Source: an uncultured Candidatus Saccharibacteria bacterium
GTDB taxonomy: Bacteria > Patescibacteriota > Saccharimonadia > Saccharimonadales > UBA10212
NCBI GenBank assembly: GCA_964567555.1
Contig: CAZMNA010000003.1
Coordinates: 18,882 to 82,881 of the forward strand
DNA: 64,000 nucleotides
Direction: 5' to 3'
In this document: piece by piece, positions 4,938 to 34,562 of the stretch
Position numbering within the stretch: the stretch's first letter is position 1
Layout: each line of letters starts with the position of its first letter
The notes under the pieces: generated by a model
Told to the model about the DNA's origin: nothing
What the model saw: the letters and a program-made list of their open reading frames with translations, nothing else
The model's database searches: none
Made by a program: the position numbers and the translations under genes

Positions 4938-4986
4938 CTCATTTTGCTATAATTAATTCTAGAAGACTAATTTCAAGGAGAGACCT

Positions 4987-5526: not shown

Positions 5527-5539
5527 TCTTTAGATTGTA

Positions 5540-7146: not shown

Positions 7147-7151
7147 ATATT

Positions 7152-8378: not shown

Positions 8379-8380
8379 AG

Positions 8381-8409
8381 TTGGTTATGGCAGTAAAGAC
8401 GGCTATAAT
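8381..8409 (+). promoter_or_regulatory. sigma70-like promoter for tRNA-Gln (TTGGTT-17-TATAAT)
   Basis: Near-consensus -35/-10 with 17-bp spacer, 20 nt upstream of the tRNA 5' end. Confidence 0.45.
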
Positions 8410-8429
8410 AACAGGGGTAAATTGTTCAG

Positions 8430-8503
8430 TGGGGAGTGGCCAAGTGGTAAGGCACTGGGTTCTGGTCCCAGGATCGGGGGTTCGAGTCCCTCCTCCCCAG
8501 CCA
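8430..8503 (+). tRNA. tRNA-Gln (anticodon CTG), CCA encoded
   Basis: Folded by hand: 7-bp acceptor stem tggggag/ctcccca, anticodon stem ctggg/cccag with loop ttCTGgt, T-arm ggggg-TTCGAGT-ccctc, discriminator G then CCA. Confidence 0.9.
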
Positions 8504-8712
8504 TATAGGACGAGCTGAGGTGTTAAGTTTCAAAAAACTAATATAGCCATAAGCTTTTATGGCATTAATGTCAAATGTTTAACACTTTGGGCAAGTTCGA
8601 GTACTATCTCTCCTATTGACAGAGTTCAATATTTTACAGATAGGACATGTTATAGCTAGTGTTGTTAAAATAATAATTGAACTTTTTAACAAGAGCGTAC
8701 AACTAAATAGGG

Positions 8713-9498
8713 CTAGGTATAGAGCCCATGCTCTCTATAGTCTATTCCTTGAGATAGAGTGTGGACGTTAAAGAAGGCTCTAAAAACGACATTATTGGGA
8801 TCGTCCAACTTATCTTCAACCACTGTACCCGCAGATTTTATAAACTGTGTTAAAACCTCTGTGCGCTCCTCTGGAGTGCACCATTCTTGCCAAAGCAAGT
8901 CACCGAAACGCTCTATGTAGTAAGCAATTAACCCATCCTCATTGAGCCAGTGCGTCTCTACCATGCGTGGATCTACATCCATCAAAACAACAGCCTCTTC
9001 GCCAGTCTCTGTCGTAACAAACCGAAACATATCGCGCTGCAAAACTGGGCTATGGATCTTAAGCCCGCCATATCCTCTGAATAGCCTTGGAAGTCTAGCA
9101 GCAAGATCAACTTTAGTTTGGGTCGAGGCTTCTATAATTGGGTGACTATGGGCCAGATATTCGCTAACCATGACAACTGGGTTTTGCGCAACTGAATCGT
9201 AATCGTTTATGGCTATCTCTGTCCTTACAGGCGATATACCGGCCATGCGAAAGGTCTCCTGCATGCAATCCCACACCTCCTCGAAATTACGACCGCACGC
9301 TTCCACCTCATTTACGGCTCGCCGAGTGAAACTTCTAGTAACAAATTGTCTGCCATCCTCCTCTTCAACAAGTTGCAGGAGAATATCTGGAGAGTGAGAA
9401 AGCCTTTCAACCGGCTGCGCTACCTGAATACGCCCACGGATTAGACCGTCTAGGCCATCTACAAATTCTTGGGTAGGATAAATCTCTAGTCCGCTCAT
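8713..9498 (-). CDS. hypothetical protein (261 aa), first gene of the accessory island
   Basis: Long ORF with normal amino-acid composition; no recognisable domain. Confidence 0.5.
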   Translation of the reverse strand: MSGLEIYPTQEFVDGLDGLIRGRIQVAQPVERLSHSPDILLQLVEEEDGRQFVTRSFTRRAVNEVEACGRNFEEVWDCMQETFRMAGISPVRTEIAINDYDSVAQNPVVMVSEYLAHSHPIIEASTQTKVDLAARLPRLFRGYGGLKIHSPVLQRDMFRFVTTETGEEAVVLMDVDPRMVETHWLNEDGLIAYYIERFGDLLWQEWCTPEERTEVLTQFIKSAGTVVEDKLDDPNNVVFRAFFNVHTLSQGIDYREHGLYT

Positions 9499-9708
9499 TA
9501 TGAGTAAATTATGATAAAAAGCGATTTATTTGCAAGCATAAGCTTACATCACTGGAGAAATTAATAGTTGATTTACATATAGATACATTTATTATATAAC
9601 TAGCCCGTCTTTGTTGAGGTGTTTCAATGCGAGGACGCTCTTTAACCCAAGCTTTCCGGCTGTGCCGGACGGCTAAATCGGGGCAGTGCCCCAAGGAGGT
9701 GGCTTAAA

Positions 9709-10704
9709 ATGCCACGCAATCGTGACGATCGGATCAAGTACCGCAAGGACTTCCCGTTCGTGGACTGGTTCTACACGGTCGGACCGGGCACCCTAAAGAC
9801 CCATGATCCTGATAACTTTGCAAGTGTCGAGATCAAGGTCAAGCAGGGAACGCCGGATCTGATGTACAGACAGTCCCAGGATGCCGGTCCTTGGGAGGTT
9901 GCTATTTCCCCCGCGATCGTTCGGACCGCGGAGCCCCACTACGAGGGTCAGCAGTGCGAGTATCTCTTCGTAGTTCTTACCGACGGCGTCGTCTCTACCG
10001 AGATGAGGATTGGAGTGAAGGAAGGATACCCTGAATCCTGCCGGTATAACTACGTACGAGAGGTCTTCACCAAGTATCCCTTCGCAAGAGTTGAGTACCT
10101 TGTCTGGGTCTCGATCCAGAACTGGTACGATACGCCGGAGGATCACGTTTGGAGTCTCGCACCCGGCGTCGACGATCAGTACTTCGTCGAGAGGACAATG
10201 AAGGTCACGATCTACAAACCACCACGTGATGGTTGGTCGGGTCTGTATCGTCGTGCTCGGCTCGGCGATACGTACCTAACGACTCGGCCACTTCTTCGTG
10301 GGATCGTCAGTAACGACCCAGACTGGTTGGCGATCAGCGATCGCTTGGATCAGCTCGCGGAAGCGTTCGAGTCGCGTGTCTACCTAAAGGGAATGCGTGA
10401 CAAGATCGACTCCTCAGAGATGAAGGGTATGGCCAGTCAGTGGGGCAACGTCAAAGTCATGACTTACGCCGCCCTCGGGCGGGTCATGATCACCCTCGAT
10501 GAACCGCGTTACCAGATCACCTTCATGGCCGCTGAAGACGGCGAGCCACGGATGGGCATTAACGCAGTCGATGGGCCACTTCCTCAACTCGAGCGGATCG
10601 TCAAGACGGTCATCAAAGGTTGGGAAGCATCCGAAGATCCCGCCTCTTCGCACAACGATGAGCGGGGGTTCAGCCCGTGGCCATTCATCCCTGAGACCAC
10701 CTAA
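9709..10704 (+). CDS. hypothetical protein (331 aa), ~56% GC
   Basis: AAGGAGG RBS 6 nt before the ATG. Trp/Tyr/Asp-rich globular composition; no recognisable family. Confidence 0.55.
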   Translation: MPRNRDDRIKYRKDFPFVDWFYTVGPGTLKTHDPDNFASVEIKVKQGTPDLMYRQSQDAGPWEVAISPAIVRTAEPHYEGQQCEYLFVVLTDGVVSTEMRIGVKEGYPESCRYNYVREVFTKYPFARVEYLVWVSIQNWYDTPEDHVWSLAPGVDDQYFVERTMKVTIYKPPRDGWSGLYRRARLGDTYLTTRPLLRGIVSNDPDWLAISDRLDQLAEAFESRVYLKGMRDKIDSSEMKGMASQWGNVKVMTYAALGRVMITLDEPRYQITFMAAEDGEPRMGINAVDGPLPQLERIVKTVIKGWEASEDPASSHNDERGFSPWPFIPETT

Positions 10705-10768
10705 ACCTCAACGGAGACGAGAGGGGCGGTTCATCCGCCCCTCAACTCTCAAATTTTTTTTAGGGCTT

Positions 10769-11254
10769 TTAGCTAATCAATTCTTCTAGCTTCGCAAACC
10801 TAACAACTTGCCAAGCCATAGCTTGTGATTCAGTTCTCCGCATGAATTCGCGACTGCTATTTTGGGACAAAATATTCAAACTACCTTCATATAGTATCTT
10901 TCGGTCTATGATAGCTACTTTACGGTGATGTCCTTCAGTGAATATGACCTGTATACCAAGGTGCTGAAGTTGTGATAGTGCTTTTAGGGCATCTAAGCGC
11001 ATAACATCATTATGTTCTTGAGGATCCCTGGTATTTATAGCTACTCTTACTCTCTTTGACTTAGCTCGCTTTAAGGCCGGTAGCAGGCACTTTAGACGTT
11101 TGGAAGTAACAAATGGGCTTTCGATGATTATTTCTGCTCCGGCCTTGTTAATGTCCCGCAAAAGCCTCGGGTAGAATGTATCTTCGTCAAATAACTTTGA
11201 TTCGGATATATCAGATATGCCATTATGAAACCGTTGGAGAAGGCGAGTTATCAT
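10769..11254 (-). CDS. PLD/HKD-family nuclease-like protein (161 aa), paralog 1
   Basis: HRKVAIID = HxKx4D motif followed by GSLNILSQ, Nuc/PLDc_2-like size. Roughly 45% identical to the 17890-18372 product (aligned by eye). Confidence 0.7.
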   Translation of the reverse strand: MITRLLQRFHNGISDISESKLFDEDTFYPRLLRDINKAGAEIIIESPFVTSKRLKCLLPALKRAKSKRVRVAINTRDPQEHNDVMRLDALKALSQLQHLGIQVIFTEGHHRKVAIIDRKILYEGSLNILSQNSSREFMRRTESQAMAWQVVRFAKLEELIS

Positions 11255-11344
11255 GACGCCTCCTCGGTTTGGATAGGTTTTAGGAGTTCTTTGATCGCTT
11301 CTATATCTTCTAATTCATCTAAATCAGTGTCATCGAGAGTTATA

Positions 11345-11902
11345 TTAGCGACCAATCTCTCCAGCCAGGTCGCCCGAGGGCGACCTAAGGGCTAAAAAAA
11401 GTTCATTCACGCCTGTAATCTTGTTAATATCTTGGGTTCCAGAAATTATTTCCTGATAAGTAGGCGCTTTGTCGAATATTACGGCGAAATAACCGGCTCT
11501 AGCCAGCGGATTTATCTGTTCTAACAGTAGATATTCCAGGTGTTCCAGAAAATATCTGACGTATTTCATTATTATGCTTAAATCGAGTGGTTGGTTCATC
11601 TGAGTCTTCTCCTTTTGCTCAGTTAAAGTTGCTATTTGATCTTCGGTTTTAATTAGTTCCTCCTCCATGTACTTAATTGCTGTTGCTGAGCTTAAGACCT
11701 TCATCTTATCCATGATTAGACCTGCCGAGAGTCTTTGCTCCTGTATGCGACCTTCTAAATCAACCTCATCTTGTTTAAGCAGAGCCTGGCGCTTATCCCA
11801 TTCCTTGGATACAGCCTGCTCGAATTCATTGATTCGCTCCGGCGCTACACTCAAACTCTTCACAAAGGCTTCTATAGTCTGATTGAAGTCCTTCCGGGGC
11901 AC
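11345..11902 (-). CDS. hypothetical coiled-coil protein (185 aa, GTG start); possibly the downstream part of a frameshifted avd fusion
   Basis: Overlaps the Avd ORF by 31 nt in the +2 frame. Its N-terminus (RKDFNQTIEAFVKSLSVA) loosely resembles the missing 4HB helix-3 region (..GRrs-KEF..FL.iA.GS); this is the weakest link. The rest is predicted helical and E/K/Q-rich. Confidence 0.45.
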   Translation of the reverse strand: MPRKDFNQTIEAFVKSLSVAPERINEFEQAVSKEWDKRQALLKQDEVDLEGRIQEQRLSAGLIMDKMKVLSSATAIKYMEEELIKTEDQIATLTEQKEKTQMNQPLDLSIIMKYVRYFLEHLEYLLLEQINPLARAGYFAVIFDKAPTYQEIISGTQDINKITGVNELFLALRSPSGDLAGEIGR

Positions 11903-12114
11903 TCGGAAGTAGTGGCCGCGGCAGCCAAAATTGACTCCAGCGCCAACAATACTTCGTTTTGTATTGTAGAGCCCAGCGTATAGCGCTCAGATTTTGGGAA
12001 GTGCTTGAGTTGTTCGTGGAGAAGTTTATATAACTGGTAAAAAGAATGAACAATAGGAATATCGACAGCAGTCCCACCCAGCTTGGTCTTGAACTCGCTG
12101 GTACCGTCCATCAA
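11872..12114 (-). CDS. avd: DGR accessory variability determinant (Avd)-like four-helix-bundle protein, truncated at 80 aa
   Basis: FYQLYKLLHEQLKHFPKSERYTLGSTIQNEVLLALESIL matches helices 1-2 of the 4HB (23S rRNA-IVS protein/Avd) family. The ORF stops where helix 3 should begin and its continuation appears in the overlapping frame. Confidence 0.55.
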   Translation of the reverse strand: MMDGTSEFKTKLGGTAVDIPIVHSFYQLYKLLHEQLKHFPKSERYTLGSTIQNEVLLALESILAAAATTSECPGRTSIRL

Positions 12115-13089
12115 GCTTTGATTTTAGCATCATTTGATCATATTTCCTCTGTTGATAACCTTTTTTCAGCTTGGCAGAGATTTCGTCGTGGCAAGCAATC
12201 ACGCCCAGACGTTTTGGCCTTTGAGAGGAACCTCGAGGACAACATATTCGGCCTTCAAACAGCCTTGAAAAACCGAAGCTATAGGCATGGAGACTATGAG
12301 CCGTTTACCATCTGCGATCCCAAGCAGCGCCAAATTCATAAAGCCACTGTGCGGGACCGAGTTGTCCACCAATTGCTTGTCTCGGCGATCGAACCGTTAT
12401 TTGATAGACACTTCATATATGACAGCTACTCCTGCCGCAAACATAAGGGTACCCACGCGGCAGTCGACCGGTTGAGGACTTTTCTGCGCAAAGCTAGCAA
12501 CAATAACACCAGGCAGGCTTACGCACTTAAACTGGACGTTCATAAATTCTTCGCCTCGGTCGATCATGACATTCTGACAAAGCTCTTAAAGAAACGGCTC
12601 CAAGACCCGCAAATACTGTGGCTACTCGATAAAGTTATAGAAAGTCACGAAGTTACACCAGGCAAAGGTATGCCGCTGGGCAACCTAACTAGCCAGCTAT
12701 TCGCTAACGTCTATATGCACGAGCTGGATTGGTTCGTCAAAAATCAACTGAAAGCTAAATACTACTTACGCTACTGCGATGATTTTATTATTGTCGATAC
12801 TGACCGCGACAAATTGCTTGGTCTTGTGCATCCATTGAGCGAGTTCCTTAACGAGTGTTTGGGTCTACATATTCACCCCCAAAAGATAAGTTTGCGAAGC
12901 TGGAGCCAAGGAGTGGATTTCCTGGGTTATGTATCCAAGCCACACTGTACTCTATTGCGTACTAAAACCCGAAAACGGATGCTGGCTAAAGTGGATTCTC
13001 ATAACCTGCCATCTTATCTAGGTCTATGTTCGCACGCCGACACATATAGGCTGAAGCGGTTAATTCTCAATAAAACAGCCTCTACTTGA
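12046..13089 (+). CDS. diversity-generating retroelement (DGR)-type reverse transcriptase
   Basis: RT motifs 0-7 are present: SAWQRFRRGK, ICDPKQR..DRVVHQ, the DGR-specific PLGNLTSQLFANVYM (I/LGxxxSQ in place of QGxxxSP), YLRYCDDFII and GVDFLGY. At 347 aa it has no maturase/En domains. It overlaps avd head-to-head if it starts at 12046; TTG 12118 is an alternative start. Confidence 0.8.
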   Translation: MNNRNIDSSPTQLGLELAGTVHQALILASFDHISSVDNLFSAWQRFRRGKQSRPDVLAFERNLEDNIFGLQTALKNRSYRHGDYEPFTICDPKQRQIHKATVRDRVVHQLLVSAIEPLFDRHFIYDSYSCRKHKGTHAAVDRLRTFLRKASNNNTRQAYALKLDVHKFFASVDHDILTKLLKKRLQDPQILWLLDKVIESHEVTPGKGMPLGNLTSQLFANVYMHELDWFVKNQLKAKYYLRYCDDFIIVDTDRDKLLGLVHPLSEFLNECLGLHIHPQKISLRSWSQGVDFLGYVSKPHCTLLRTKTRKRMLAKVDSHNLPSYLGLCSHADTYRLKRLILNKTAST

Positions 13090-13216
13090 GGTATGAAAAA
13101 GGGGCGCTAGATCTCACGGCTATAAAACAGCCGAAAAATTTCGCGCCCCTGTGGGGCGGAGGGCCAAGGAACGAATTCCAAGGCCCTCCCAGCCCCTAGG
13201 GACCAAAGTCCCAGTC

Positions 13217-14017
13217 CTACAACTCCCTGACCACCGGAACGGCATAGTCGTCGCTGCGGTCGTCGTCCCAGCTGGCACCCAGGCCGACCTCGCGGTCGAT
13301 CCCGTTCCAGTCGAGGATCGGCACGTCCGCCCAAGCCTCGCTGCCGGGAACGTTGGCCTGAAGGCCAGCTGCCCAGGCGCCCGGAATGGTCTCGTAGTCG
13401 ATGGCCGGCGGATACGCGGGGTGAGCCGCGAAGGCCGACAGGACTTGGAGTCCGGCCGAGTCATCGCCACGAACGTCCTTGGGGGCAGAGCCCCGGTTGG
13501 CCGTCATGTCCAGCTCGACCCACTTGACGCTCGGCTCCTTGCCGTAGCGGTCGGGGTTGAGCAGGCGCAGGTGCTCGGCGTCGGACTTGAGCCCGTCGTA
13601 GCGCCAGTAACCGTTGTCGATGATCTTCTGTTCGTGCTTGATCCAACCGGCCAGAGCCTCGAAGGTGGTCGGCAGGTCGCCGAGCCAGACGTCGAGGGTG
13701 AGCAGGTGGTCGAGCGAGCTGACGTGGTCGGTCGGCATCGTCTGCTTGAGCTGATCGAGCAGATCGGTGACCGGCCAGTCCTGGAACCCCGCGTAGTACG
13801 AGAAGCGACCGAGGATCTCCTCCGGTGTGCTGAAGACCTGCGGGACCGGCGGGACCATCAGGGCGTTGAACGCCTGGCGGTCAATCCGACCGGGATCGCC
13901 CTTCATCAGGGCAGTCAGTAGGTCGAAGTTGTCGACGAGCTTCTGCACGTTGTCACGGCTCTCCTTGCGGAGGTTGTCCGTGATTTCGCTGGCCTGAGCC
14001 ATCGTTGAAGCCGACAT
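13217..14017 (-). CDS. hypothetical protein (266 aa) on a ~65% GC foreign segment
   Basis: AAGGAG RBS 6 nt before the ATG on the minus strand. Diverse W/Y/D-rich composition. The overlapping plus-strand ORF is R/V/G-rich and looks like an antisense artefact. Confidence 0.5.
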   Translation of the reverse strand: MSASTMAQASEITDNLRKESRDNVQKLVDNFDLLTALMKGDPGRIDRQAFNALMVPPVPQVFSTPEEILGRFSYYAGFQDWPVTDLLDQLKQTMPTDHVSSLDHLLTLDVWLGDLPTTFEALAGWIKHEQKIIDNGYWRYDGLKSDAEHLRLLNPDRYGKEPSVKWVELDMTANRGSAPKDVRGDDSAGLQVLSAFAAHPAYPPAIDYETIPGAWAAGLQANVPGSEAWADVPILDWNGIDREVGLGASWDDDRSDDYAVPVVREL

Positions 14018-14274
14018 GCGAACTCCTTTGTCCGTGCCGTAGAGCCTACCCGTTATTCCACACCATAGGAGTGTGGCGAGCCAACCCTATTTGAGAACGG
14101 CGCACCAAAACCGAATGCTTCGGTTACAGAGTGCCATTCTCTTGAGAGAGTCGTAAAACCAATTGTTAAAGAACAGGGCTATTATACTATTTTAACTCTC
14201 GTATGTCAATAAGCTTATGTTAACATTTTCACCTTAAGCGTACAGGCATAGTACCCAGCTGGTAAAATACGTTT

Positions 14275-14538
14275 ATGACAAAGCAAAAATCCATTGATGA
14301 AATAAAATCTGCTTGGAATGACTTCGACAGACCAAAAAACGGTCAAATCTTTCAGCACTATAAAGGCGGAACATATGAGGTCGTCGCGACCGGTTTCCTC
14401 GAAGACACTGAGGCACCTTGTGTAATTTATCGCTCTCTTGAGAAAAATATAGTTTGGGTACGAACCGCCAAGAATTTTTTAGAACAAGTTGAATATAAGG
14501 GCATCACGCAGCCGCGATTTGAGTTAGTTAAAAGATAA
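14275..14538 (+). CDS. DUF1653-family small protein
   Basis: FQHYKGGTYEV..VIYRSLE matches the DUF1653 core. Confidence 0.6.
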   Translation: MTKQKSIDEIKSAWNDFDRPKNGQIFQHYKGGTYEVVATGFLEDTEAPCVIYRSLEKNIVWVRTAKNFLEQVEYKGITQPRFELVKR

Positions 14539-14734
14539 CTGGCTGAGCATCTCGGTCTAGTACACTTTTGCTCTGTCTCATGAATTATAGCCTAACTCCT
14601 TAAAACGAGACAAATGAGACAGTATAAAGGCTCAAAACCCGGCACCACACGCCCCCCATTGATAAATCTAGGTTTTGTTGTAAAATAATTGCATTGGGAC
14701 TTTATGTCTTGCCCTTCGACAATTCGAAAGAGGT

Positions 14735-15439
14735 GTGAAATTGGACACTACAATTACAGCTCAGCCTCCGACAGGAAAGTTGAGTGCCACCGACAGGTTG
14801 ATCTTCGGAATCATCCTGGGGATCGTCGTCGCGTTCGTCCTCTTTGTCGTTTACCTCGCTGCAGCAACAATCGCTCAGATGTATTACGACGCAGACGGAA
14901 CTCCGACTACGACGTTCTATCAAGCCGACTACATGAGGGCGATGGGGCTTAATGTCAACAAGCCCATTCCGCTCCGGCTTGGCAACCTGGTCAACGGGAC
15001 ATCGGGAACGACAACTTCGACTGTTAGCGGCGGCCTGTTCGGGTTCAGCTCAGTTACATCGCTGGATTTCGGACCGGATCAGCTTCTGAAGATCGGTTTT
15101 CAGCGCTCAGATGGGACTCGATACATCTTCTACTTCTCGATCAAGAAAGTCCGTGTCAGCTACCCGGCGCTTCACGCCGGTCAACATCCGTACATCAAGT
15201 TCACGATCAACAACTCGGCTGTAACTACGCAGTACGACTCGTGGACCCAGGTAAGGGCCAAGAACGCATGGGCATTCCAGGCAGGCGAGTATCGATACTT
15301 CAGACCACCCCTCAGTCATCAGACTGCGGCCTGGAGTGAGATCCAGTCAACTGGCCTGGCGAAGTACCTCGAACGAAGCGTCACTTCAATCGTGCTCGGC
15401 TTGACTCCGAGTCAATACCAGCGCATCTTGAACGGCTAA
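14735..15439 (+). CDS. N-terminally membrane-anchored hypothetical protein (234 aa)
   Basis: One TM helix (LIFGIILGIVVAFVLFVVYLAAA) then a Thr/Ser-rich globular part. AAGAGG RBS upstream; start is GTG 14735 or TTG 14741. Confidence 0.5.
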   Translation: MKLDTTITAQPPTGKLSATDRLIFGIILGIVVAFVLFVVYLAAATIAQMYYDADGTPTTTFYQADYMRAMGLNVNKPIPLRLGNLVNGTSGTTTSTVSGGLFGFSSVTSLDFGPDQLLKIGFQRSDGTRYIFYFSIKKVRVSYPALHAGQHPYIKFTINNSAVTTQYDSWTQVRAKNAWAFQAGEYRYFRPPLSHQTAAWSEIQSTGLAKYLERSVTSIVLGLTPSQYQRILNG

Positions 15440-15467
15440 GTGGCTGGAAGACCACAAGGAGGTAACA

Positions 15468-15671
15468 ATGCTGGAAAGAATTGCTCTTTGGTGGGAGCTC
15501 CAGAAGGCGTACAATCTTCGGGCTCGGATTCTCGGTGAATTGAGGCATATACCCCCGGAGAGTCAGTGGAGCGGGCTGGACGACCTCGTACGGCAGCTCA
15601 CTGAAGTGGAGGACTTCATCGTTCTTCACGATCCTTTCTTGGCAAGAAGCACTCGGCTCGCCGAGGCCTGA
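15468..15671 (+). CDS. small hypothetical protein (67 aa)
   Basis: ORF preceded by AAGGAGG. It is followed by the intrinsic terminator at 15735. Confidence 0.3.
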   Translation: MLERIALWWELQKAYNLRARILGELRHIPPESQWSGLDDLVRQLTEVEDFIVLHDPFLARSTRLAEA

Positions 15672-15734
15672 AAGGGCCGTTGAGGCGCAAGAAACCCAAT
15701 CGTAGACCTAGGCTGGAAGTAGCAGGCCTAGGCA

Positions 15735-15755
15735 CCGCGCCCCCCGCGAGGGGGC
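15735..15755 (+). terminator. rho-independent terminator (8-bp G/C stem gcgccccc/gggggcgc, 5-nt loop, then TTTAAATTT)
   Basis: Perfect GC hairpin followed by a T-rich tract, located after the 15468-15671 ORF. Confidence 0.5.
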
Positions 15756-15870
15756 GCTTTAAATTTCTTATAAATTTTGCGCAACAAAAGCCTTCTGTGC
15801 GGTGATTAAAATTAGCGGGATATTCATGCAATTGATGCAACTTACCACCTATGACATGATATGAGAAGCT

Positions 15871-16944: not shown

Positions 16945-17074
16945 AGTACCGTATCCCGCTATTTGCAGTATTTATACATTAGTGTTATAGTAAACTTCTC
17001 TCGTTGAGCGCTTTAGGGTGCTCCGAGCGCCCTTCGCAGTTCAACGAACCCAACCCCAACAGGGAGGTTCGGTC

Positions 17075-17512
17075 ATGGGTATCAGGGTACGCCGCCGCAC
17101 GCTGCTCATCGCCGGACTCGTTTGGGTCGGCGTAGCGCTTCTCGGCGGGATGACGGGTCCCAATCGGGGCTCGGGAGCACTTGTAGGCGTCCTTTTCATC
17201 GCCATCGTCATCTACGCCGGCATGGTGTTGATCGGGTGGACCATCAACAACCCGGACGAGATCGGTCACCGTGTCGCGGTAGCGACGCTGATCACTGGGC
17301 TGGCCTTCGTCGTATACGCGCTCATCGGCCTGCTCGTCGACGGTGCCAACTACCGATTCTTCGGCTTTGCCGGAGTTATCGGAGGCGCGTTCATGTCGGT
17401 CTCCGTTCTGGTGCGCTCGAGGCTGATCCGGATGGCACACGACAATCAGCGAACACCTGCACAGCAACAGCAGGACATCGTCGACATCTACAAACACATC
17501 CGCAAGCCGTGA
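17075..17512 (+). CDS. small integral membrane protein (~145 aa) on a ~62% GC segment
   Basis: GGGAGG RBS then the ATG at 17075. Four hydrophobic helices. Overlapping ORFs on other frames or strands are Arg-rich artefacts. Confidence 0.45.
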   Translation: MGIRVRRRTLLIAGLVWVGVALLGGMTGPNRGSGALVGVLFIAIVIYAGMVLIGWTINNPDEIGHRVAVATLITGLAFVVYALIGLLVDGANYRFFGFAGVIGGAFMSVSVLVRSRLIRMAHDNQRTPAQQQQDIVDIYKHIRKP

Positions 17513-17675
17513 CAACAGAACTGCAAGGGATCAACCGGGCTCGGCGTACGAACCAGTACGTCGGGCCCGGAGCTTCACCCGAGTTCATAAGCAATGCTTG
17601 TGGCCTCAGCCGAGGCGCTCAATAACACTGATTAATAAATGCAAAGCTTAAAAGTATATACTTCTTACGTTGCGT

Positions 17676-17876
17676 TTATTCGGTCTTGTCGTTCAGCTCT
17701 TCGTATAGCTTTTCAATAAGCTCAGGATTCTCATGACTCATGTTGTGGAAGAAGGACTGCAGGTCCTTCAGCATAGCAATGGCTTTTTCGGGTGTAGCAT
17801 TCTCTGGATCGTGAATCTTTAGGTAGCGAATAACACTATCTATATCTTTTTCGTTGATTTCGTAGTCTTTCGCCAT
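17676..17876 (-). CDS. small helical hypothetical protein (66 aa) immediately downstream of the PLD paralog 2
   Basis: 13-nt gap after the upstream gene suggests an operon. Charged helical composition. Confidence 0.4.
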   Translation of the reverse strand: MAKDYEINEKDIDSVIRYLKIHDPENATPEKAIAMLKDLQSFFHNMSHENPELIEKLYEELNDKTE

Positions 17877-17889
17877 AATTACTTCTATC

Positions 17890-18372
17890 TTACCAATAAA
17901 ACCGTTTCAACTTTAAAAAACTAATCATTTGCCGAGAAAGTTGCTCCGATTCTATACGTCGCATAACTTCACGGCTATGGCTCTGAGACAATATATTAAG
18001 ACTGCCTTCCCATAAAACCCTTTCATCCAGTATTGCGATTTTCCTGTGGTGATAATCATGGAAGAATTTAACTTTAACTCCTATATTCTTTAGCTCTTTT
18101 CTTGCTTGCCATGCCTGGATGCGCAGTAACCTGTCGTGATGGTTGGGGAAGCGAGTGTTTACCCTCACTACCACCCCTTTCTTAACCAACTTGCGGAGGG
18201 CAGGGGAAAGAGTGCGCAATCTACTTGTCGTGATGTATGGACTTTCAATGATAACCTCCTTCTGGCAAGTCTTTAGGTCTTGCAAAAATGCTCTGTAAAA
18301 TGTTCGTTCATCGAACAGATTCGAGGTAAGTAGGTCAGCAGGTGCGACCTTATGGCGCTTAAGACTTATCAT
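17890..18372 (-). CDS. PLD/HKD-family nuclease-like protein (160 aa), paralog 2
   Basis: HRKIAILD HxKx4D motif and GSLNILSQSHSREVMRRIES, nearly identical in arrangement to the 10769-11254 product. Confidence 0.7.
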   Translation of the reverse strand: MISLKRHKVAPADLLTSNLFDERTFYRAFLQDLKTCQKEVIIESPYITTSRLRTLSPALRKLVKKGVVVRVNTRFPNHHDRLLRIQAWQARKELKNIGVKVKFFHDYHHRKIAILDERVLWEGSLNILSQSHSREVMRRIESEQLSRQMISFLKLKRFYW

Positions 18373-18529
18373 CGTCTACCTCCATCCCCAGAGCCACCAG
18401 TTTCTGGTACATTAAGAGCAGGCTAGGGTATAAGGTGTTCCACCTATGGGCGACCATCCCAGCCAAGCCAAAGGTTGACCGTAGCTATCGGTACCCGTAA
18501 AGTCGTCGAAGCTAGGCCCTAGGAGCCTT

Positions 18530-19195
18530 TTATCTTTTGGCTAGTTCTTCTAGCTTCTCTGGGCTGGGCACGATAATTTTTTTGCCTGTCTTGATAAGTT
18601 TCTCTTTTTTGAGCTTAGCCATGGAAGTCGATACAGTTTCTCGTGTAAGACTCAAGATGTCAGCCAAGTCTTGATGTGTGAATGGCGTCAGGATCTCGGT
18701 GCCGACCGCCCTCCTATAGCCAAACCGCCTAGCATAATATGCCAACTGGTGAGCTAGCCGTTTATATGAGTTTTTCATTGATATGTTTTCTAGCCCCTGG
18801 GTAGCTGATGTCATGCGTTTGCCAGCTTCGCTTAACAGATCTTTATATACGAGTGGGTTTTTATTGGCATACTCAGCCAGTTCCCGAACATCCAAAGCGT
18901 ATACGGTAGCGTCTGTCAGAGCTTCATAATAGTAGGTTTCGTTACTATCGAGTCTCTGGCGTCTATATAGAGCAGTAAAAATTAGCGTCATAGAAAAAAC
19001 ATCGTCTGGGCCATAAATTAAATCGACGCTCAAAGAACCATCGTTTTTTATCAAATACCTTTTTATATAACCCGTCTGTATGAGGTTGAAGGCAGTCGGG
19101 TCCTCAGTGGTCTGGATAATCTGGCCCTTATCATATTTTAATAAGCGGCCCTTGCTCTCCATGAATAAGTGCAACTTACTGTTTCGCTCATTCAC
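18530..19195 (-). CDS. Crp/Fnr-family transcriptional regulator
   Basis: N-terminal cNMP-binding beta-roll and C-terminal HTH (HQDLADILSLTRETVSTSMAKL). Confidence 0.8.
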   Translation of the reverse strand: MNERNSKLHLFMESKGRLLKYDKGQIIQTTEDPTAFNLIQTGYIKRYLIKNDGSLSVDLIYGPDDVFSMTLIFTALYRRQRLDSNETYYYEALTDATVYALDVRELAEYANKNPLVYKDLLSEAGKRMTSATQGLENISMKNSYKRLAHQLAYYARRFGYRRAVGTEILTPFTHQDLADILSLTRETVSTSMAKLKKEKLIKTGKKIIVPSPEKLEELAKR

Positions 19196-19796
19196 GCCTT
19201 AAGAATAGCATAAGGTTTATACACTTGATATTACGGCGTAAAAATCGTCAAAGGGAGTGCTTGGAGTGACCTACTACGCCGCATGGCCATAATTGGCGTG
19301 AAGAGTTTTCAAAATCAGGCCCTAAGCCTGGCATGCCTTAGCTTGCGCCAGCGGCGTGCTTGTAGCCTTCTAGATCGCTCGTGCAGCCTAAGGTCTAGCA
19401 TGTCGAAGAACGGCTCATTGTTATCCAGCTCACTCACCGGTCTCGGCCGAGTGACTATGTAGTGGTCCCTCATGCTAAATTTTCTTAAGGCTGAATGACT
19501 TCTCATTGGTCCCCCAATCCTTTAATAATACTTTTACGGTAAGTGGAATATGTGTCAAAATCTGTAAGATTTGTTACAAAAAAGTTTGTTGTATGAAAAA
19601 TTACAGAAACTCTTTACTGCTTCGGTGTAAGCTGACTTGCGTAGGGGAGGAACGCTAAGTAGAAGTAACAAATAGCGCCCCTATCGGCGGAGCGAGGCGA
19701 ACAAGTAATGATGATGCCAGCGCCCCACCCGCCGTTAAAAGCATCTGGCGGCAAGCAAATCTAAGTCGGGCTCTTGGCCTGGTTCCGGAGGTAAGC

Positions 19797-20408
19797 ATGG
19801 AAGACTACTCGGTGAGTGCATCCATAGACATGGTTCAAGCGCTTAAGAGGTTTCTGTACTTACAGCGGTATTCCATTCATCTCCCCAGCAGCCCACCGAG
19901 CCTGCACTTGCCGAACGCCGTAGCCGAACGCTTCTCGAGCCTCCGGCTTGATTATCCAACGGCCGATGCCAGTGGGGTGCCAGGAGAGAAAAGTGGTTCA
20001 ACGAAGCTCCTCAAGATGGCAGCCAAAGGGCACGACGTTTTGATTAGAGCTAACACAGTCTTTCCTTTCACGCTCTTTCCCGACACTGTAATTATTGATC
20101 GCGAGAAGCTAACCATAGTAAAGCGCCTTTTCTTCGCTACGGCTAAGATTATTAGCGTGCCAATAGCCGACATCCTTAGCGTGGAGGTCGATGTTGGTCC
20201 GTTCTTCGGGTCTATACATATTTCCAGCAGGTACTTCATAAGAAACCCCTACTCGGTTAATTATCTTGGGCGAAACTATGCCATTAAGCTGCAACGGCTG
20301 CTACAGGGCTACATTATTGCCCACGAGAGAAAAGTTGACTGCTCAGGAATGGGCAAAGAAGAGCTAAAAATTCTATTGGAAGATTTGGGTAAAGTCACTG
20401 CCGGCTAG
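19797..20408 (+). CDS. hypothetical protein (203 aa), paralog A of a duplicated island gene
   Basis: About 50% identical over ~150 aa to the 24063-24662 product (FPF.LFPDTV..DREKLTI..R.FF.TAKI.SVPI.DIL.VE.DVGPFFGS.H..SRYF). Confidence 0.55.
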   Translation: MEDYSVSASIDMVQALKRFLYLQRYSIHLPSSPPSLHLPNAVAERFSSLRLDYPTADASGVPGEKSGSTKLLKMAAKGHDVLIRANTVFPFTLFPDTVIIDREKLTIVKRLFFATAKIISVPIADILSVEVDVGPFFGSIHISSRYFIRNPYSVNYLGRNYAIKLQRLLQGYIIAHERKVDCSGMGKEELKILLEDLGKVTAG

Positions 20409-20497
20409 CCAGCAGTGTAGTTGGGTTGAGCCAAAAAAGAAGGTGGCAACGGCTCGTCTTTGGTGCTTTAGGTAAGTACTGCACTAGCCCGTGTCGG

Positions 20498-21544
20498 TTA
20501 AATTGGCTCAAGAACCGGCATAAGAGATGGCAAGAGTGGATTAGTCCCGACTTTTTCAATAACATCGCTCAGAACGCGCGTATCGCGCGTTAGCGCCAGT
20601 CTTACTATGTGCAAAATCATTGATTCGTGATTGAGCTTTAAGATTAAAGCGCATGACTTAGGAAAAGACCCATAACCAGCAATAAGGCTGGGCAGGAGGT
20701 TGGCTTCTAGAAAGTGCGGCGTACCGTCTTCATCCAACCTGATATCAATGCGGCCATAGTCGCGGGCGCCGAGCGCATTAAAAACGTTTTGTGCTAAGGC
20801 GCCAACTTTATGTTTTATGGCTGGATCGGCAATTTCTATAGCCAACTCGCTATTTGATGATTTAACTTCCTCACTTAAAAGGCGGGCCCCGAACGCATTT
20901 GCCTGGGCAATCAGCTCAAGGGGCATGATTATAAGCTCCTCTGAGAGATTGTCTTTTAATATGGCTACACTAAATTCGCGGCCAGGCAGGTATTCTTCTA
21001 CTATAGAGTCCGATTTCAAATTTTTAGAGATCGCTTCTATCTTGGAACACAGCTCCCTAAAATTATTGACTACTGAGAAGCTATCAATCCCTAGGCCACC
21101 ACCTCTGTCTGCAGGTTTTACAAATAAGGGGAACTTCAAGCCCAAATTGCCGCTTGGGAGTGACCCTTGCTTTATAACGCAAAACGGGGAAGTCTTTAGG
21201 CCGGCACTGTGTACACGACGTTTGGCGGTTGGTTTTGAGAATTCCAGTTCGTGCGCTGGCGCGGCGGAGCCGGTGGATGGGATGCCAGCATTATCAAGCA
21301 GTTCGCTCAGCCAAATCTTTCTCGCACCGCCCTGGGAGGGCACAAATTTCATACCTAGAAATACTAGATCCGGCTTTAGGGCGACCAACTTCTGTAAGTC
21401 TTTGTCATTATTGACGGTGGTAATGCCAACCCGCGAATAATGTCTGGTTAAAACAGCGAATATAGCATCGCACGAGTCCTGACTCATTGAACTAAGCCGA
21501 ACCACGTTAGAGCGCACAATTTCAATGTGCTTGTTAATTTTCAT
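20498..21544 (-). CDS. ATP-grasp domain enzyme (D-Ala-D-Ala ligase-like)
   Basis: FPLFVKPADRGGGLGI ATP-binding region and GRIDIRLDEDGTPHFLEANLLPSL C-terminal ATP-grasp motif. Confidence 0.7.
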   Translation of the reverse strand: MKINKHIEIVRSNVVRLSSMSQDSCDAIFAVLTRHYSRVGITTVNNDKDLQKLVALKPDLVFLGMKFVPSQGGARKIWLSELLDNAGIPSTGSAAPAHELEFSKPTAKRRVHSAGLKTSPFCVIKQGSLPSGNLGLKFPLFVKPADRGGGLGIDSFSVVNNFRELCSKIEAISKNLKSDSIVEEYLPGREFSVAILKDNLSEELIIMPLELIAQANAFGARLLSEEVKSSNSELAIEIADPAIKHKVGALAQNVFNALGARDYGRIDIRLDEDGTPHFLEANLLPSLIAGYGSFPKSCALILKLNHESMILHIVRLALTRDTRVLSDVIEKVGTNPLLPSLMPVLEPI

Positions 21545-21619
21545 GAGCGCGCAACCGTTCTAGGGGCTCAAAATGTTAAGCCCCTTGTTTAACTATTGCT
21601 AAAGAAACTTCTAAAGTCC

Positions 21620-21907
21620 TTAGTAAGAGCGGCGGAAACCACCACCAGAGGGGCGGTCTTCTTTTGGTCGAGCCTGGTTGACCATCAACTTACGGCCGCC
21701 CAGTTCTTTTCCGTTAAGATTGGTGATAGCCTTTTGGGCTTCTTCGGCACTGGACATTTCAACGAAGCCAAAGCCTTTACTGCGGCCAGTGTCTCGGTCC
21801 ATGATGATGGCTACGCTCTCAACAGTTCCCTGTTGAGCGAATAGCTCCTCAAGTTCTTTCTCGGTCGTTTCGTAGGCAAGACCGCCTACATAAAGTTTAG
21901 TTGCCAT
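21620..21907 (-). CDS. RRM-type RNA-binding protein with a glycine/arginine tail
   Basis: RNP2 KLYVGGL and RNP1 KGFGFVEM motifs, then a C-terminal GGGFRR tail. Confidence 0.85.
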   Translation of the reverse strand: MATKLYVGGLAYETTEKELEELFAQQGTVESVAIIMDRDTGRSKGFGFVEMSSAEEAQKAITNLNGKELGGRKLMVNQARPKEDRPSGGGFRRSY

Positions 21908-22112
21908 GATTATTTATCCTTACTTTTAACTAATATCGCTCGCAGTTATATTTTTCTTACCGCGATGATAGTTAAGTTTTTTGGACTAGGCTAGTGACAA
22001 CGGTTAGTAGATAGTACTACTTGCTTAAGCTAAGTGTAACACAAAAACTAGTTTTATAATAGCTTGATCTACTTTTCAAGAACCGGTACTTGAGCCCAGG
22101 ATCCAGAACCGC

Positions 22113-22703
22113 CTAGCTGCTCTTTTTTCTATGGCCATAAGTAAATTTATATATAAGTTCTACGGCAATGCCAACAACTAGACCTGATAAGAACAGAAGG
22201 ATAGGAACAAAGAAATTGTATTTGTAGCCCAGATGACGGGTGTAGTACATATAAAGACCGCTGCCGATAAGCGCTACAATACCGCCGGATAAAATGGCAT
22301 ATGGTCTGGCCAAAGTCTTGGCGGTAAACTCGCTAATGCTACTGACTACAGGGTTATGAATAATCTTACTGTAGCGCCGTTCGGACGGGCTCAGGTTTCG
22401 ACGGATCGAACTCCATGTCTTAGTGATAGTATCGATTATCGGTGCAAGATCGGGCAAGGGGACATTTATTATCTTAGAAGCCGATTGGGCTGACTCGTCC
22501 AACTGATCGGCCTTTGGCTTATGGATTTCACCAATGCGCTCTCGCGTTTTCTCTATATTTAACGTCTCACTCTTAATATCTGTTTTTTTCTCGGCGTGTT
22601 TTGGTTCCTGCTCTGGAGTAGGGCTGGCTTCGTGAGCCTGAACATCTTGCTCAATATTCCTTGGCAATCTTTCACTCATTTTATTCAACCTCCTGGCCAC
22701 CAC
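22113..22703 (-). CDS. membrane protein (196 aa), two C-terminal TM helices
   Basis: Charged N-terminal half and a hydrophobic C-terminus. It overlaps the end of the upstream LPXTG gene. Confidence 0.5.
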   Translation of the reverse strand: MVARRLNKMSERLPRNIEQDVQAHEASPTPEQEPKHAEKKTDIKSETLNIEKTRERIGEIHKPKADQLDESAQSASKIINVPLPDLAPIIDTITKTWSSIRRNLSPSERRYSKIIHNPVVSSISEFTAKTLARPYAILSGGIVALIGSGLYMYYTRHLGYKYNFFVPILLFLSGLVVGIAVELIYKFTYGHRKKSS

Positions 22704-23925
22704 TGCTTAGTTCAAGCGCAAGTCGCGCCTCCTTAAGCTGCAGCCTGCGGTTAGAGTAAAAATATCCAGCTATAGCCGCGATAGCGGCGAAGGTGAATAT
22801 CGATGTTCCCGGGCCGGTGTTGGGCAGGGACGTAGCGGCATTCGCGATGACAACTTGGGCCGTCGGAGGTTGAACCTTTACGTTAATTATATCGCCAAAG
22901 ACATTGGTCATCTTGTAGTTGTAAGCATCGGGGTCGGAAAGGGACCTAGTTGTTGGCAAAGGATTATCAACCGTTACGCTAAATGTTCTTGTGACTGTTG
23001 CGCCCGGCTTAATATTAACTTTAGGGAAGCTCAAAAAGCCAGTTGATTTATCGTATGTGCCGCCACCCCTATTAGTTAGAACTGCATACTCCAAAATATC
23101 AGCAATATTATCCTGAATCACGAAGTTTGGCTGCTTGCGCTTACCGGTATTTTTAACTATTAGAGCGTACTTTAAGACATCGCCTGGCTTGGCGGTTGTA
23201 CCATTAGCATCGCTGTTATGGCGTTTCACGTAGACTACGGTTTTGTGGTAGGTCAGGCACGCCAGTGTGTAAAACTCGGAAGGTGAACCCTTACAGGGTC
23301 TGCACTTGGGACTTTTGGCGGGTATCTTGTCGTTATATGGGCAGGTTTTTGGCGGCGGAGGTCCCTTTGGAAGACCAATAGAGACTAAGTTGCCACAGGT
23401 AAATAACATCCAAAAAGTTTTGCCTTTAGAGCTGGTAAACTTTAGAGTCGTATAGGTAGAGGATTTGTGAGTATCCCAAGCGTGCAGTAGCCGCCAATAA
23501 ATTACTTCGCTGCCTATATTGACAGGGGTTTCGCTGGCGTACCCTTGAGGCAAGTGACCGGCTGAGTATAGCCTGCCGTTGTAGTCGCGCGAGTTTAAGG
23601 AGACTACTTTGCCTTTGGCAAGGTCAACACATTTTATGCTGTAGTAGTTTAGAACCCTATCAATCTTATTAGTATTTTTATCGCAGTCTTTAACCAGCTG
23701 CGATTTAGAGGTAACGCCGCCCGGTATAAGATCATTTTGGCTAGGCGCGGCGCTTGATTGGCTAGGTGCCAGGGCGGCAAAAACCTGCAAAACTAATGCA
23801 ACTAAAATCAATAGGACGCCGAGTCCCCGGATGAATCGCTCTTTAGAAACGCTTAGAGTAAACTCTCTGAGCCTTGCTGTATAACCCGGTGTTGATTTGT
23901 ATCTTGAAAGAATTTTGTCAAGCAT
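22681..23925 (-). CDS. LPXTG-type sortase-anchored surface protein (414 aa)
   Basis: N-terminal TM/signal, Cys/Pro/Lys-rich middle region, and C-terminal LPNTG plus hydrophobic stretch plus RR tail. Confidence 0.7.
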   Translation of the reverse strand: MLDKILSRYKSTPGYTARLREFTLSVSKERFIRGLGVLLILVALVLQVFAALAPSQSSAAPSQNDLIPGGVTSKSQLVKDCDKNTNKIDRVLNYYSIKCVDLAKGKVVSLNSRDYNGRLYSAGHLPQGYASETPVNIGSEVIYWRLLHAWDTHKSSTYTTLKFTSSKGKTFWMLFTCGNLVSIGLPKGPPPPKTCPYNDKIPAKSPKCRPCKGSPSEFYTLACLTYHKTVVYVKRHNSDANGTTAKPGDVLKYALIVKNTGKRKQPNFVIQDNIADILEYAVLTNRGGGTYDKSTGFLSFPKVNIKPGATVTRTFSVTVDNPLPTTRSLSDPDAYNYKMTNVFGDIINVKVQPPTAQVVIANAATSLPNTGPGTSIFTFAAIAAIAGYFYSNRRLQLKEARLALELSSGGQEVE

Positions 23926-24062
23926 GTTGGTTTGTTACGACATTCCAGCTTTAATTAAATCATAAGCGTGTTGGTTTGGCTAGGAATAAAAGCAAGTACT
24001 CTAGTGTAATATACCTTATACTTCAGGGCTCGTAGTGCGTGATATAATAAGAGTGCATAGGG

Positions 24063-24662
24063 ATGGAGGTGTCTATGAGCAACTACTTACTGGATACCTC
24101 TTTAGATGTTCCAAATATAAATCTGGTTTCGGCGCTCAGAAGAGCGCTTGTTTTATATAGAGCAAATAAAACAGCAGCCAAAAGAACGACTTTAGCTAGA
24201 ACAAAGGACGTTATTATGCGGGTGCCGAAGGTAGTACGTCTTGATAGGGGCTCCGAAAAATTAATCGGCATGGCGGTCCAATCGCACGATATTTTATTTA
24301 AGGCTAACACTGCATTCCCGTTTAATCTTTTCCCCGATACTGTAACGGTTGACCGGGAAAAGCTGACCATAGCCAACCGCATCTTTTTCTTAACAGCTAA
24401 AATTACCAGCGTGCCTATCCGAGACATATTGAACGTTGAGGCCGATGTGGGGCCGTTCTTTGGCTCTGTGCACCTGACTAGCCGCTATTTCTTCACCAAC
24501 CCCCGCTCAGTCAATTTCCTGCACCGTCATGACGCTTTAGATTTACAGCGGCTAGTGCAGGGCTACATTCTTGCCCACGAGCAGCACCTGGATTGTTCTA
24601 AAATGAACAAGGAACAGCTTGTAACTTTGCTTGAAGATTTAGGCAAGGGCGACACGGATTAA
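24063..24662 (+). CDS. hypothetical protein (199 aa), paralog B of the duplicated island gene
   Basis: See 19797-20408. Last gene before the atp operon. Confidence 0.55.
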   Translation: MEVSMSNYLLDTSLDVPNINLVSALRRALVLYRANKTAAKRTTLARTKDVIMRVPKVVRLDRGSEKLIGMAVQSHDILFKANTAFPFNLFPDTVTVDREKLTIANRIFFLTAKITSVPIRDILNVEADVGPFFGSVHLTSRYFFTNPRSVNFLHRHDALDLQRLVQGYILAHEQHLDCSKMNKEQLVTLLEDLGKGDTD

Positions 24663-24695
24663 AACATAAGAGACCGCGAAGGGGTTGCTTGTGAT

Positions 24696-34561: not shown

Positions 34562-34562
34562 T

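Follow-up and report, generated by a model that had tools for sequence, protein, structure and literature searches.

Genomic islands that occupy tRNA genes, tandem arrays of them included, are the subject of the Islander/TIGER concept (PMC4383910, PMC12424338). The locus analysed here lies beside a tRNA-Gln(CTG) gene in a 64,000-nt stretch of an uncultured Candidatus Saccharibacteria bacterium (contig CAZMNA010000003.1; this whole stretch is “the window,” and coordinates count from its first nucleotide) and is of a well-known kind, i.e., a tRNA-linked genomic island with tandem accretion and decay. It resembles Islander/TIGER islands in having an intact tRNA gene at one end and a putative displaced 3′ fragment of that gene, in the same orientation, at the other, in occurring sporadically among strains, in its atypical composition, and in the stacking of several islands at one tRNA. 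It differs in its enzyme: where an integrase was found at this site (one sister strain, three other genomes), it is a large serine rather than a tyrosine recombinase—and the copies in the window, having no integrase, would fail Islander’s filter.

Attachment to tRNA 3′ ends is classically the role of tyrosine integrases. Among phages and SCC-type elements, large serine integrases (phiC31, Bxb1, Ccr) are proteins of ~500 aa with domains in the order Resolvase, Recombinase, zinc ribbon; they mostly target protein-coding genes, and their attP and attB sites have only a few bases in common. The integrase of the sister-strain element described below (E0) has the same domain order and ~500-aa size, yet 18 nt are common to its attL and attR, 13 of them from the tRNA. 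A further parallel is offered by cis-mobilizable elements (CIMEs), integrase-less, att-flanked elements that reportedly accrete next to integrative and conjugative elements (ICEs) of the Streptococcus thermophilus ICESt1/ICESt3 family; here, too, att-bounded elements without a recombinase (E1 in the window, and the islands at loci L171 and L185 elsewhere) belong with the integrase-bearing E0 in a tandem arrangement, though no conjugation module or relaxase is linked to the elements in the window. Small phospholipase D (PLD) family nucleases such as Nuc of plasmid pKM101 are the nearest counterparts of the two PLD proteins of the locus (PLD1 and PLD2), which likewise have a single PLDc_2 domain, measure ~160 aa, are borne on mobile elements and are predicted to be nucleases, although PLD1 has no sequence match to any PDB chain (phmmer). 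The locus also holds part of a diversity-generating retroelement (DGR). With DGRs of the Bordetella phage BPP-1 type (surveyed in PMC5758913) it shares the reverse transcriptase (RT) motif, avd, a target gene whose 3′ end holds a 127-nt variable repeat (VR) and, in the intact relatives L194 and L196, differences between template repeat (TR) and VR at adenines only. It departs from them in that the RT lies on the strand opposite both target gene and avd, the window copy lacks the TR and half of avd, the target is an unmatched protein, and the target gene alone stands ~20 GC points above RT and avd; DGRs with a GC content atypical for their host are known, but for whole cassettes (PMC5758913). 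What is unusual at this locus, then, is the enzyme class, a terminal module of an acidic open reading frame (ORF) and a PLD gene that outlives the integrase, and the gene-restricted high GC and unmatched fold of the DGR target.

The reading we favor, and consider likely, is that two decayed integrative elements, arriving one after the other, are stacked at tRNA-Gln. In this model the 3′ end of tRNA-Gln(CTG) would be the chromosomal attachment site for a group of Saccharibacteria-type integrative elements moved by large serine recombinases—and it would be these, rather than some unseen enzyme, that catalyzed the insertions. Each element would carry a small PLD-family nuclease gene and a short copy of the tRNA 3′ end at the end opposite its integrase, and each newcomer would integrate at the tRNA, pushing older elements rightward. 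Element E2 (11368-18465) would have arrived before element E1 (8504-11367). E1 would since have lost its recombinase, and E2 would have undergone one internal deletion, from inside its recombinase gene to inside avd, that removed the catalytic half of the recombinase, the TR of the DGR and anything between them while RT and target gene survived.

The attachment site itself is documented by an insertion polymorphism. The tRNA-Gln(CTG) gene (8430-8503, plus strand; ARAGORN; Rfam tRNA, 62 bits) is intact and forms the left edge of the island. When the exact SodA, AtpC and 266-aa target proteins were looked up in public assemblies, the same sequence was recovered from many samples, and one of these (ERZ27245399) holds a sister strain represented by two contigs, L002 and L102, that are 99.99% identical to the window on either flank. 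L002 equals window 1-8512 and then departs; L102 (321 kb) equals the window from 24017 back to 8491 and then departs. Both junctions carry TCCTC[C/T]CCAGCCATATAG, i.e., the last 13 nt of the tRNA plus ATATAG. The att core, TCCTCCCCAGCCATATAG (8491-8508, plus strand; 13 terminal tRNA nucleotides and 5 nt more), is thus the insertion point of an element, E0, and is duplicated at both E0 junctions as an 18-nt repeat with one C/T difference. At its left end, 63 nt from the tRNA, E0 encodes a 497-aa Resolvase+Recombinase protein (PHROG integrase, E=2.5e-75), and at its far end a Tad4-like gene and a helix-turn-helix (HTH) gene are followed by a PLDc_2 gene. The window is the empty site for E0, and the attP of E0, reconstructed as the circular junction, reads CGAACTTCCTCTCCAGCCATATAGAACGCAAACG. 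The suggestion of an earlier, sequence-only reading of this DNA that the tRNA 3′ end served as an integration site is therefore borne out by an integrase-bearing element sitting exactly there. As a separate observation, the Tad4-like gene (L102 16506-17261; Pfam PF25186, anti-Thoeris family), which lies beside the HTH repressor, places an anti-defense gene on a Saccharibacteria element.

The E0 integrase belongs to a family with a recurrent address. It has >1390 relatives, some of them named Candidatus Saccharibacteria, Saccharimonadales or Chromulinivoraceae, names that would also point to the affiliation of the window organism; no relatives of it, or of the RT, were found among the IMG/VR viral contigs scanned. 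In L197 (87% identity), L198 (67%) and L200 (64%) the relative’s gene ends 72-84 nt from a tRNA-Gln 3′ end, and the three share a conserved flank, GCGTTCTAT(A/T)TGGCTGGGG. A relative in L202 (61%) lies near tRNA-Asn, not tRNA-Gln. Among the cargo of these elements are restriction-modification systems, AbiU2, a Y-family polymerase and a Replic_Relax protein.

Two more distant relatives have islands built on the same plan, with no recombinase inside. In L171 the tRNA-Gln(CTG) gene is followed by 8.1 kb that end in an acidic ORF, a PLD gene and CCTCCTCTCCAGCCA; the corresponding stretch of L185 measures 4.1 kb (copper ATPase, CsoR-like repressor) and ends in a PLD gene and GTCCCTCATCCCCAGCCA. In both, PLD is the last gene and the displaced tRNA-Gln 3′ fragment measures 15-18 nt in the orientation of the tRNA. 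The right ends are also alike in sequence: all five compared (E0, E1, E2, L196 and L191) begin with TGGCTGG, ~80-110 nt upstream of the PLD start, and L171 and L185 carry the motif ~110-120 nt upstream of theirs. Past the displaced fragment that ends its island, L185 (~6400-6440) has a longer tRNA-Gln-like 3′ piece (…GGATGAGGGATTCGAGTC…), which hints at another stacked element there.

These comparisons bear on the proposal that the region is a non-mobile plasticity zone, in which illegitimate recombination and deletion shuffle the content and the tRNA-like motifs are coincidental. The content downstream of the tRNA does differ in every relative, a deletion between 9-bp repeats is segregating (see below), and the core motifs are short. 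A precise sister-strain insertion with an 18-nt repeat and an integrase, 15-18-nt fragments bounding PLD-ended islands in L171 and L185, and an integrase family that consistently adjoins tRNA-Gln all count against such a zone, which we judge very improbable.

Within the window, the stacked-remnant model turns on what lies at 11357-11367. There, on the plus strand, stands CTCTCCAGCCA, a displaced tRNA-Gln 3′-end fragment that corresponds to the terminus of the tRNA and has the T variant also present at the right junction of E0. E1 and E0 have homologous right ends (in E1, PLD1, a small acidic ORF and the core), with PLD1 and the E0 PLD sharing 56–58% identity; the ~100 nt upstream of PLD1 also align, and the alignment ends at TGGCTGGAGAG, the reverse complement of CTCTCCAGCCA, so that homology stops exactly at the fragment. 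PLD1 (10769-11254, minus strand; 161 aa; PLDc_2, Pfam PF13091, E=2.3e-12) is the terminal gene of E1; for the PLD genes, PADLOC returned only the generic PLD domains of MkoC and DrmC. The acidic ORF (11251-11355, minus strand; ~34 aa, start uncertain), read from the sequence, has a stop that overlaps the PLD1 start (ATGA), and homologous acidic ORFs precede the PLD genes of E0 (L102 ~15530-15636) and L171 (~20380-20500). In three elements, a short and very acidic ORF of this kind appears translationally coupled to the terminal PLD gene through an ATGA overlap, and it could encode an inhibitor or immunity partner of the putative nuclease. The remainder of the 2.9-kb E1 (8504-11367) contains no recombinase. 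Its other cargo is a hypothetical 261-aa protein (8713-9498, minus strand), with no Pfam, PHROG or PADLOC match, and h331 (9709-10704, plus strand), a hypothetical 331-aa protein with no family match, a GC content of 56% and a GC3 (GC at third codon positions) of 0.68. The E1 genes are absent from the relatives’ loci.

The E2 side of the junction is occupied by the coiled-coil, C-terminal stump of a large serine recombinase (11345-11902, minus strand), recognized through its homologues. The ORF has no Pfam domain, and it lacks the catalytic domain (Resolvase, Recombinase) as well as the zinc ribbon: in homologues P0002-P0007 the zinc-ribbon motif MCPECEKPL...YHCNKRGHYFRVP comes first, and similarity of the stump to full-length relatives sets in only at RGHYFRVP, i.e., after the zinc ribbon. 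We therefore read it as a pseudogene remnant. The earlier statement that no integrase is recognizable holds for intact genes, as the flagged region (8504-24690) contains no intact tyrosine or serine recombinase, and fails for this stump; an intact integrase is present in E0 of the sister strain. In L192 the homologue P0002 comes directly after a Resolvase+Recombinase ORF and extends into the 3′ end of tRNA-Gln(TTG), and in L193 another homologue extends into the 3′ end of tRNA-Arg. The ‘LAG’ codons of the L192 protein are the real tRNA-Gln 3′ end, in a register equal to that of ‘DLAG’ in the window stump. This match implies that 11357-11367 was once the tRNA 3′ end beside the E2 recombinase and later became the right junction of E1. 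Kinship of the stump to the E0 integrase was sought by BLASTP, which returned nothing, and the nature of the stump was established through its own homologues. The L192 recombinase beside tRNA-Gln(TTG) (L192 203-2049) is itself split by a frameshift into a 307-aa catalytic and a 271-aa zinc-ribbon/coiled-coil ORF; as several homologues begin at the same methionine (MCPEC...), the split may be recurrent rather than an error.

E2 (11368-18465), the 7.1-kb remnant of a second element that once carried the DGR, has the stump at its left and PLD2 with a core fragment at its right. Window 11910-14217 shares 93% nucleotide identity with L196, and 17687-18465, which holds PLD2 and a 66-aa gene, shares 89%. 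Position 11910, where L196 homology stops (at about residue 67 of Avd), is where the recombinase stump begins, and a single deletion would account for both truncations. PLD2 (17890-18372, minus strand; 160 aa; PLDc_2, Pfam PF13091, E=1e-13), the terminal gene of E2, is 92.5% identical to the L196 PLD. L196 homology ends at the right-end core remnant CCCAGCCA (18458-18465, plus strand), which TGGCTGG matches as reverse complement and which marks the right boundary of the island. Both displaced fragments lie in the correct orientation and at homology breakpoints, 11357-11367 matching the tRNA end at 10/12 positions and 18458-18465 at 8/8; a search of the window allowing one mismatch found only the tRNA itself. 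Short copies of the tRNA 3′ end do exist, then, where no direct repeat had been noticed, if neither is significant alone. A 3-mismatch match to the att core at 20680-20697 was dismissed as chance, being on the wrong strand and inside a conserved Ddl-like gene.

Between its ends, and besides the DGR, E2 carries a DUF1653 protein (14275-14538, plus strand; Pfam PF07866, E=1.7e-17; GC 40%), h234 (14735-15439, plus strand), a hypothetical 234-aa protein with an N-terminal hydrophobic segment and a GC3 of 0.66, a hypothetical 357-aa protein with no family match (15871-16944, plus strand), and a hydrophobic, membrane-like hypothetical protein (17018-17512, plus strand; GC 61%, GC3 0.74; the public annotation has a gene in this frame). 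Type IV secretion genes and relaxases, as expected of an ICE, are absent from 8504-18465; neither is the region a recognizable prophage, with no structural or packaging genes and with PHROG matches that amount to the RT, Avd and weak unknowns.

The flagged region had been described as one island of ~16 kb reaching to atpC, where the core genes were thought to resume. Its patchwork composition is real: the SD of GC content in 500-bp windows is 0.057 within 8504-24690 vs. 0.033 elsewhere in the window (overall 49.6% GC, with one tRNA gene), and the GC-richest stretches of the whole 64 kb are 13000-14000 (66%) and 17000-17500 (61%), with very sharp steps at ~13100, 14050, 17000 and 17520. Against a native baseline from the 55 ORFs outside the region (mean GC3 0.519, SD 0.061), the outliers are h331 (0.68, +2.7 SD), PLD1 (0.36, –2.5 SD), the 266-aa target gene at 13217-14017 (0.865, +5.7 SD), h234 (0.66, +2.4 SD) and ORF 17018-17512 (0.74). 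All are confined to 8504-18465, whereas the genes from the Crp regulator (18530) to h199 (24662) lie within ~1 SD of native. The patchwork is the sum of cargo genes with differing compositional histories. Among the proteins of the flagged region, Pfam, PHROGs and PADLOC recognized two PLDc_2 proteins (160 aa), a DGR-type RT, an 80-aa Avd fragment, DUF1653, a Crp regulator, a Ddl-like ATP-grasp protein, an RNA recognition motif (RRM) protein, a DUF11/CLIPPER surface protein and AtpC.

Synteny places the right boundary in the same position. Relatives’ loci were collected by a TrmD search of metagenome contigs (L111-L190, ~80 loci), and the closest of them hold TrmD, SodA, DUF1345 and tRNA-Gln together. 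In L111 the tRNA-Gln gene is followed by 4.5 kb of unrelated genes and then by homologues of the Ddl-like (57%) and RRM (91%) genes, after which synteny ends; in L121 it is followed by DUF1861 and BipA genes (3.2 kb) and then by the Ddl-like gene (56%); other relatives have different genes again downstream of tRNA-Gln. The Ddl-like ATP-grasp gene and the RRM RNA-binding gene (20498-21907, minus strand) keep the order and orientation seen in L111 and are a conserved right anchor, not part of the island, so that conserved genes resume well before atpC. No gene of 8504-20450 occurs at the TrmD/tRNA-Gln locus in the ~80 relatives’ loci. Since the outliers stop at 18465 and the Ddl-like and RRM genes keep their place in relatives, the island measures ~10 kb (8504-18465), not 16 kb. 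Excising it would put the tRNA 2 kb from the Ddl-like gene, similar to the arrangement in relatives. The intervening 18530-20408, with the Crp-family regulator (18530-19195, minus strand; Pfam HTH_Crp_2) and h203 (19797-20408, plus strand), both within 1 SD of native GC3 and neither found in the relatives’ copies of the locus, probably separated tRNA and Ddl-like gene from the start and lies outside the mobile stack.

A single acquisition of the entire 8504-24690, with later loss of the integrase, would be in keeping with one tRNA at the left edge, with the lack of an intact integrase, and with the absence of h196, CLIPPER and h199, next to atpC, from the relatives’ loci; the composition of these three genes is native. 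It accommodates neither the internal tRNA-end fragment and stump (11345-11367) nor the second element end (18458-18465), and it is contradicted by the native GC3 of 18530-24662 and by synteny, as L111 and L121 also have Ddl-like and RRM genes beyond tRNA-Gln; we regard it as improbable. Two observations were made on the flanks of the island. h203 and h199 (24063-24662) are direct-orientation paralogues (377 nt, 67% identity) that bracket the block from the Ddl-like gene to CLIPPER. On the other side, sodA (7152-7751) is syntenic in the closest relatives at 64–75% identity, and a SodA search of genome contigs gave matches of 58–69% in unrelated phyla and no synteny information; the best of them, at 60–69%, were to Acidobacteriota, Gemmatimonadota and others, not to Patescibacteria. 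This suggests that sodA is an old acquisition by this clade.

Sharp GC steps such as these had raised the worry of an assembly chimera, i.e., of high-GC pieces being mis-joined contigs of other organisms, and several assemblies do break near the tRNA and at ~10020-10159. Breaks near the tRNA are expected, because strains differ there. At least nine samples, assembled independently (ENA, JGI and Logan), gave contigs that span each GC junction and are 99.9–100% identical; the sharpest step, between RT and target gene, recurs in L194 and L196 of other genomes, and the high-GC gene is tied to the neighboring RT by the TR/VR relation. A chimera is accordingly refuted for practical purposes and we give it next to no weight.

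The strongest GC patch is the target gene of the DGR. The RT (12046-13089, plus strand; Pfam RVT_1, E=1.7e-25; PHROG 1423, E=8e-109) has an intact ORF, bears the LGNLTSQ motif of the DGR clade and is 97% identical to that of L196. Beside it, avd (11872-12114, minus strand; PHROG 3206 “Avd protein of DGR,” E=8.6e-9) is truncated, with a profile match that covers only positions 15-66 of 154; about its first 67 residues are homologous to the 128-aa L196 Avd, up to the break at 11910. The 266-aa variable (target) protein (13217-14017, minus strand; GC 65%) was identified from homologous cassettes in L194/L195 (73% identity) and L196 (89%), which consist of target gene, convergent RT, divergent avd and TR. 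It belongs to a small family (28 homologues) in whose alignment the last 42 aa are hypervariable, coinciding with the VR. In the 127-nt TR/VR pairs of the intact cassettes, all differences fall at TR adenines (16/16 in L196, 14/14 in L194). The window has a VR (13224-13350, minus strand; 127 nt), recognizable only against the L196 TR, to which it is 86% identical with 15 of the 18 differences at TR adenines; no TR or long repeat was found in the island or in the whole 64-kb window. Repeats at 37489-37855 were considered as a TR and rejected as ordinary protein repeats with no adenine bias. As the template to copy from is gone, the VR is frozen, and it is identical across all strain contigs. 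Judged within the 64-kb window, the DGR is dead and eroding. A co-occurring variant (contig L104) lacks 1181 bp (11508-12688) between 9-bp direct repeats (CTAGCCAGC): it follows the window at 100% identity from 21681 to 12689 and again from 11507 to 8930, the two matches overlapping by 9 nt, and the deletion costs it the N-terminus of the RT, what was left of avd and some of the recombinase stump. Consensus scans predict a perfect sigma-70 promoter (TTGACA-17-TATAAT; 14181-14209, minus strand) upstream of the target gene and a terminator-like hairpin (13144-13158, minus strand) flanking it. L196 had been taken for an ICE from the type IV secretion system (T4SS) genes beside its cassette; this was withdrawn, as the T4SS is chromosomal and near-universal in Patescibacteria (10.1101/2025.01.22.634366).

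Comparison with Pfam families, PDB sequences and Foldseek folds gave no match for the target protein, which has a confident AlphaFold model and shows no signal peptide by eye; going by that model, it may be a new DGR target scaffold. Its gene has a coding signature of GC3 > GC1 > GC2 and is 63–65% GC in all three cassettes (window 13217-14017; L194 10001-10804; L196 5548-6348), in L194 and L196 within loci of 47–51% GC and beside RT and avd of ~45%. Because the target is GC-rich in L194 and L196 too, the GC step belongs to the cassette, and the 65% GC patch is the DGR’s own target gene, not a stray foreign fragment. That a target GC of 63–65% (GC3 0.87) is held in three cassettes diverged to 73% protein identity is an observation for which we found no mechanism; adenine depletion by the DGR across the whole gene was considered and set aside, since the target coding strand has more A than T (AT skew).

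These data also speak to the idea that the GC-rich genes are recent transfers from high-GC donors (e.g., actinobacterial hosts) into a zone prone to recombination, independent of any integrative element. It draws on four genes with GC3 of 0.66–0.87 vs. the native 0.52, for which no homologues occur in the related loci fetched. The target gene, however, is equally GC-rich at 73% and 89% protein identity with RT and avd at ~45%, and the target relatives looked up sit in loci of 47–51% GC; h331 and ORF 17018-17512, moreover, found no match in a tblastn search of 72,556 plasmids. We think this origin unlikely for the GC-rich genes as a set, though it is possible for h331, h234 and ORF 17018-17512.

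Several points weigh against the stacked-remnant model. The halves of E0 lie on separate, non-overlapping contigs, which leaves its size and continuity unproven, and the insertion polymorphism was read from assembled contigs. The two tRNA-end fragments in the window are too short for significance by themselves—we estimate that several 2-mismatch matches to the tRNA end arise by chance per 64 kb—and their weight rests on position. Since BLASTP finds stump and E0 integrase to be dissimilar, the site and the PLD-type end must be common to two recombinase families or more. No trace of a recombinase survives in E1, L171 or L185, which could be elements moved in trans or non-mobile leftovers. Lastly, the model leaves the origin of the GC-rich h331, h234 and ORF 17018-17512 without explanation.

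Beyond the locus itself, we tentatively put forward three linked readings, which taken jointly seem to us somewhat less probable than an even chance. Saccharibacteria would hold at least two families of large serine recombinases specific to tRNA 3′ ends (tRNA-Gln, tRNA-Arg). Their elements would share a terminal module, the acidic ORF coupled to PLD, that outlasts all other decay and may act as an island-stabilizing addiction/immunity pair or as a handle for moving integrase-less islands in trans. And the DGR would diversify a protein with no visible signal peptide and a fold so far matched to no known one, from a gene of ~65% GC (GC3 0.87) in genomes of ~50% GC.

Gene gain and loss are poorly mapped in Saccharibacteria and their relatives, organisms with tiny genomes that live attached to other bacteria. 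At this locus the landing site can be delimited precisely: it is an 18-nt core at tRNA-Gln, and a single population holds both the occupied and the empty allele. The candidate serine integrase, whose attB is known and whose attP can be reconstructed, might serve as a genetic tool where engineering is difficult. The locus also displays the life cycle of an island—arrival, stacking, deletion and integrase loss—with a DGR caught just after inactivation. For annotation, it shows that a sharp GC step on an intragenic scale can be a stable feature of one gene family, as it is here, and does not have to stem from misassembly or from a recent foreign source.

Elsewhere in the window, three copies of a ~49-nt motif (…AAAGAACGCACGCGCGTGGGGTG.AACAG) occur at 45467-45522, 46247-46297 and 47347-47394, 0.8–1.1 kb apart, a spacing that is not CRISPR-like. 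Adjacent genes for 203-aa and 207-aa proteins (34562-35102 and 35253-35796) are tandem paralogues (544 nt, 76% identity), and 36000-38000, a tetranucleotide outlier, encodes a repeat-rich, surface-type protein (36752-37894). An S-adenosylmethionine (SAM) riboswitch (Rfam RF00162, 52 bits) lies at 50283-50383.

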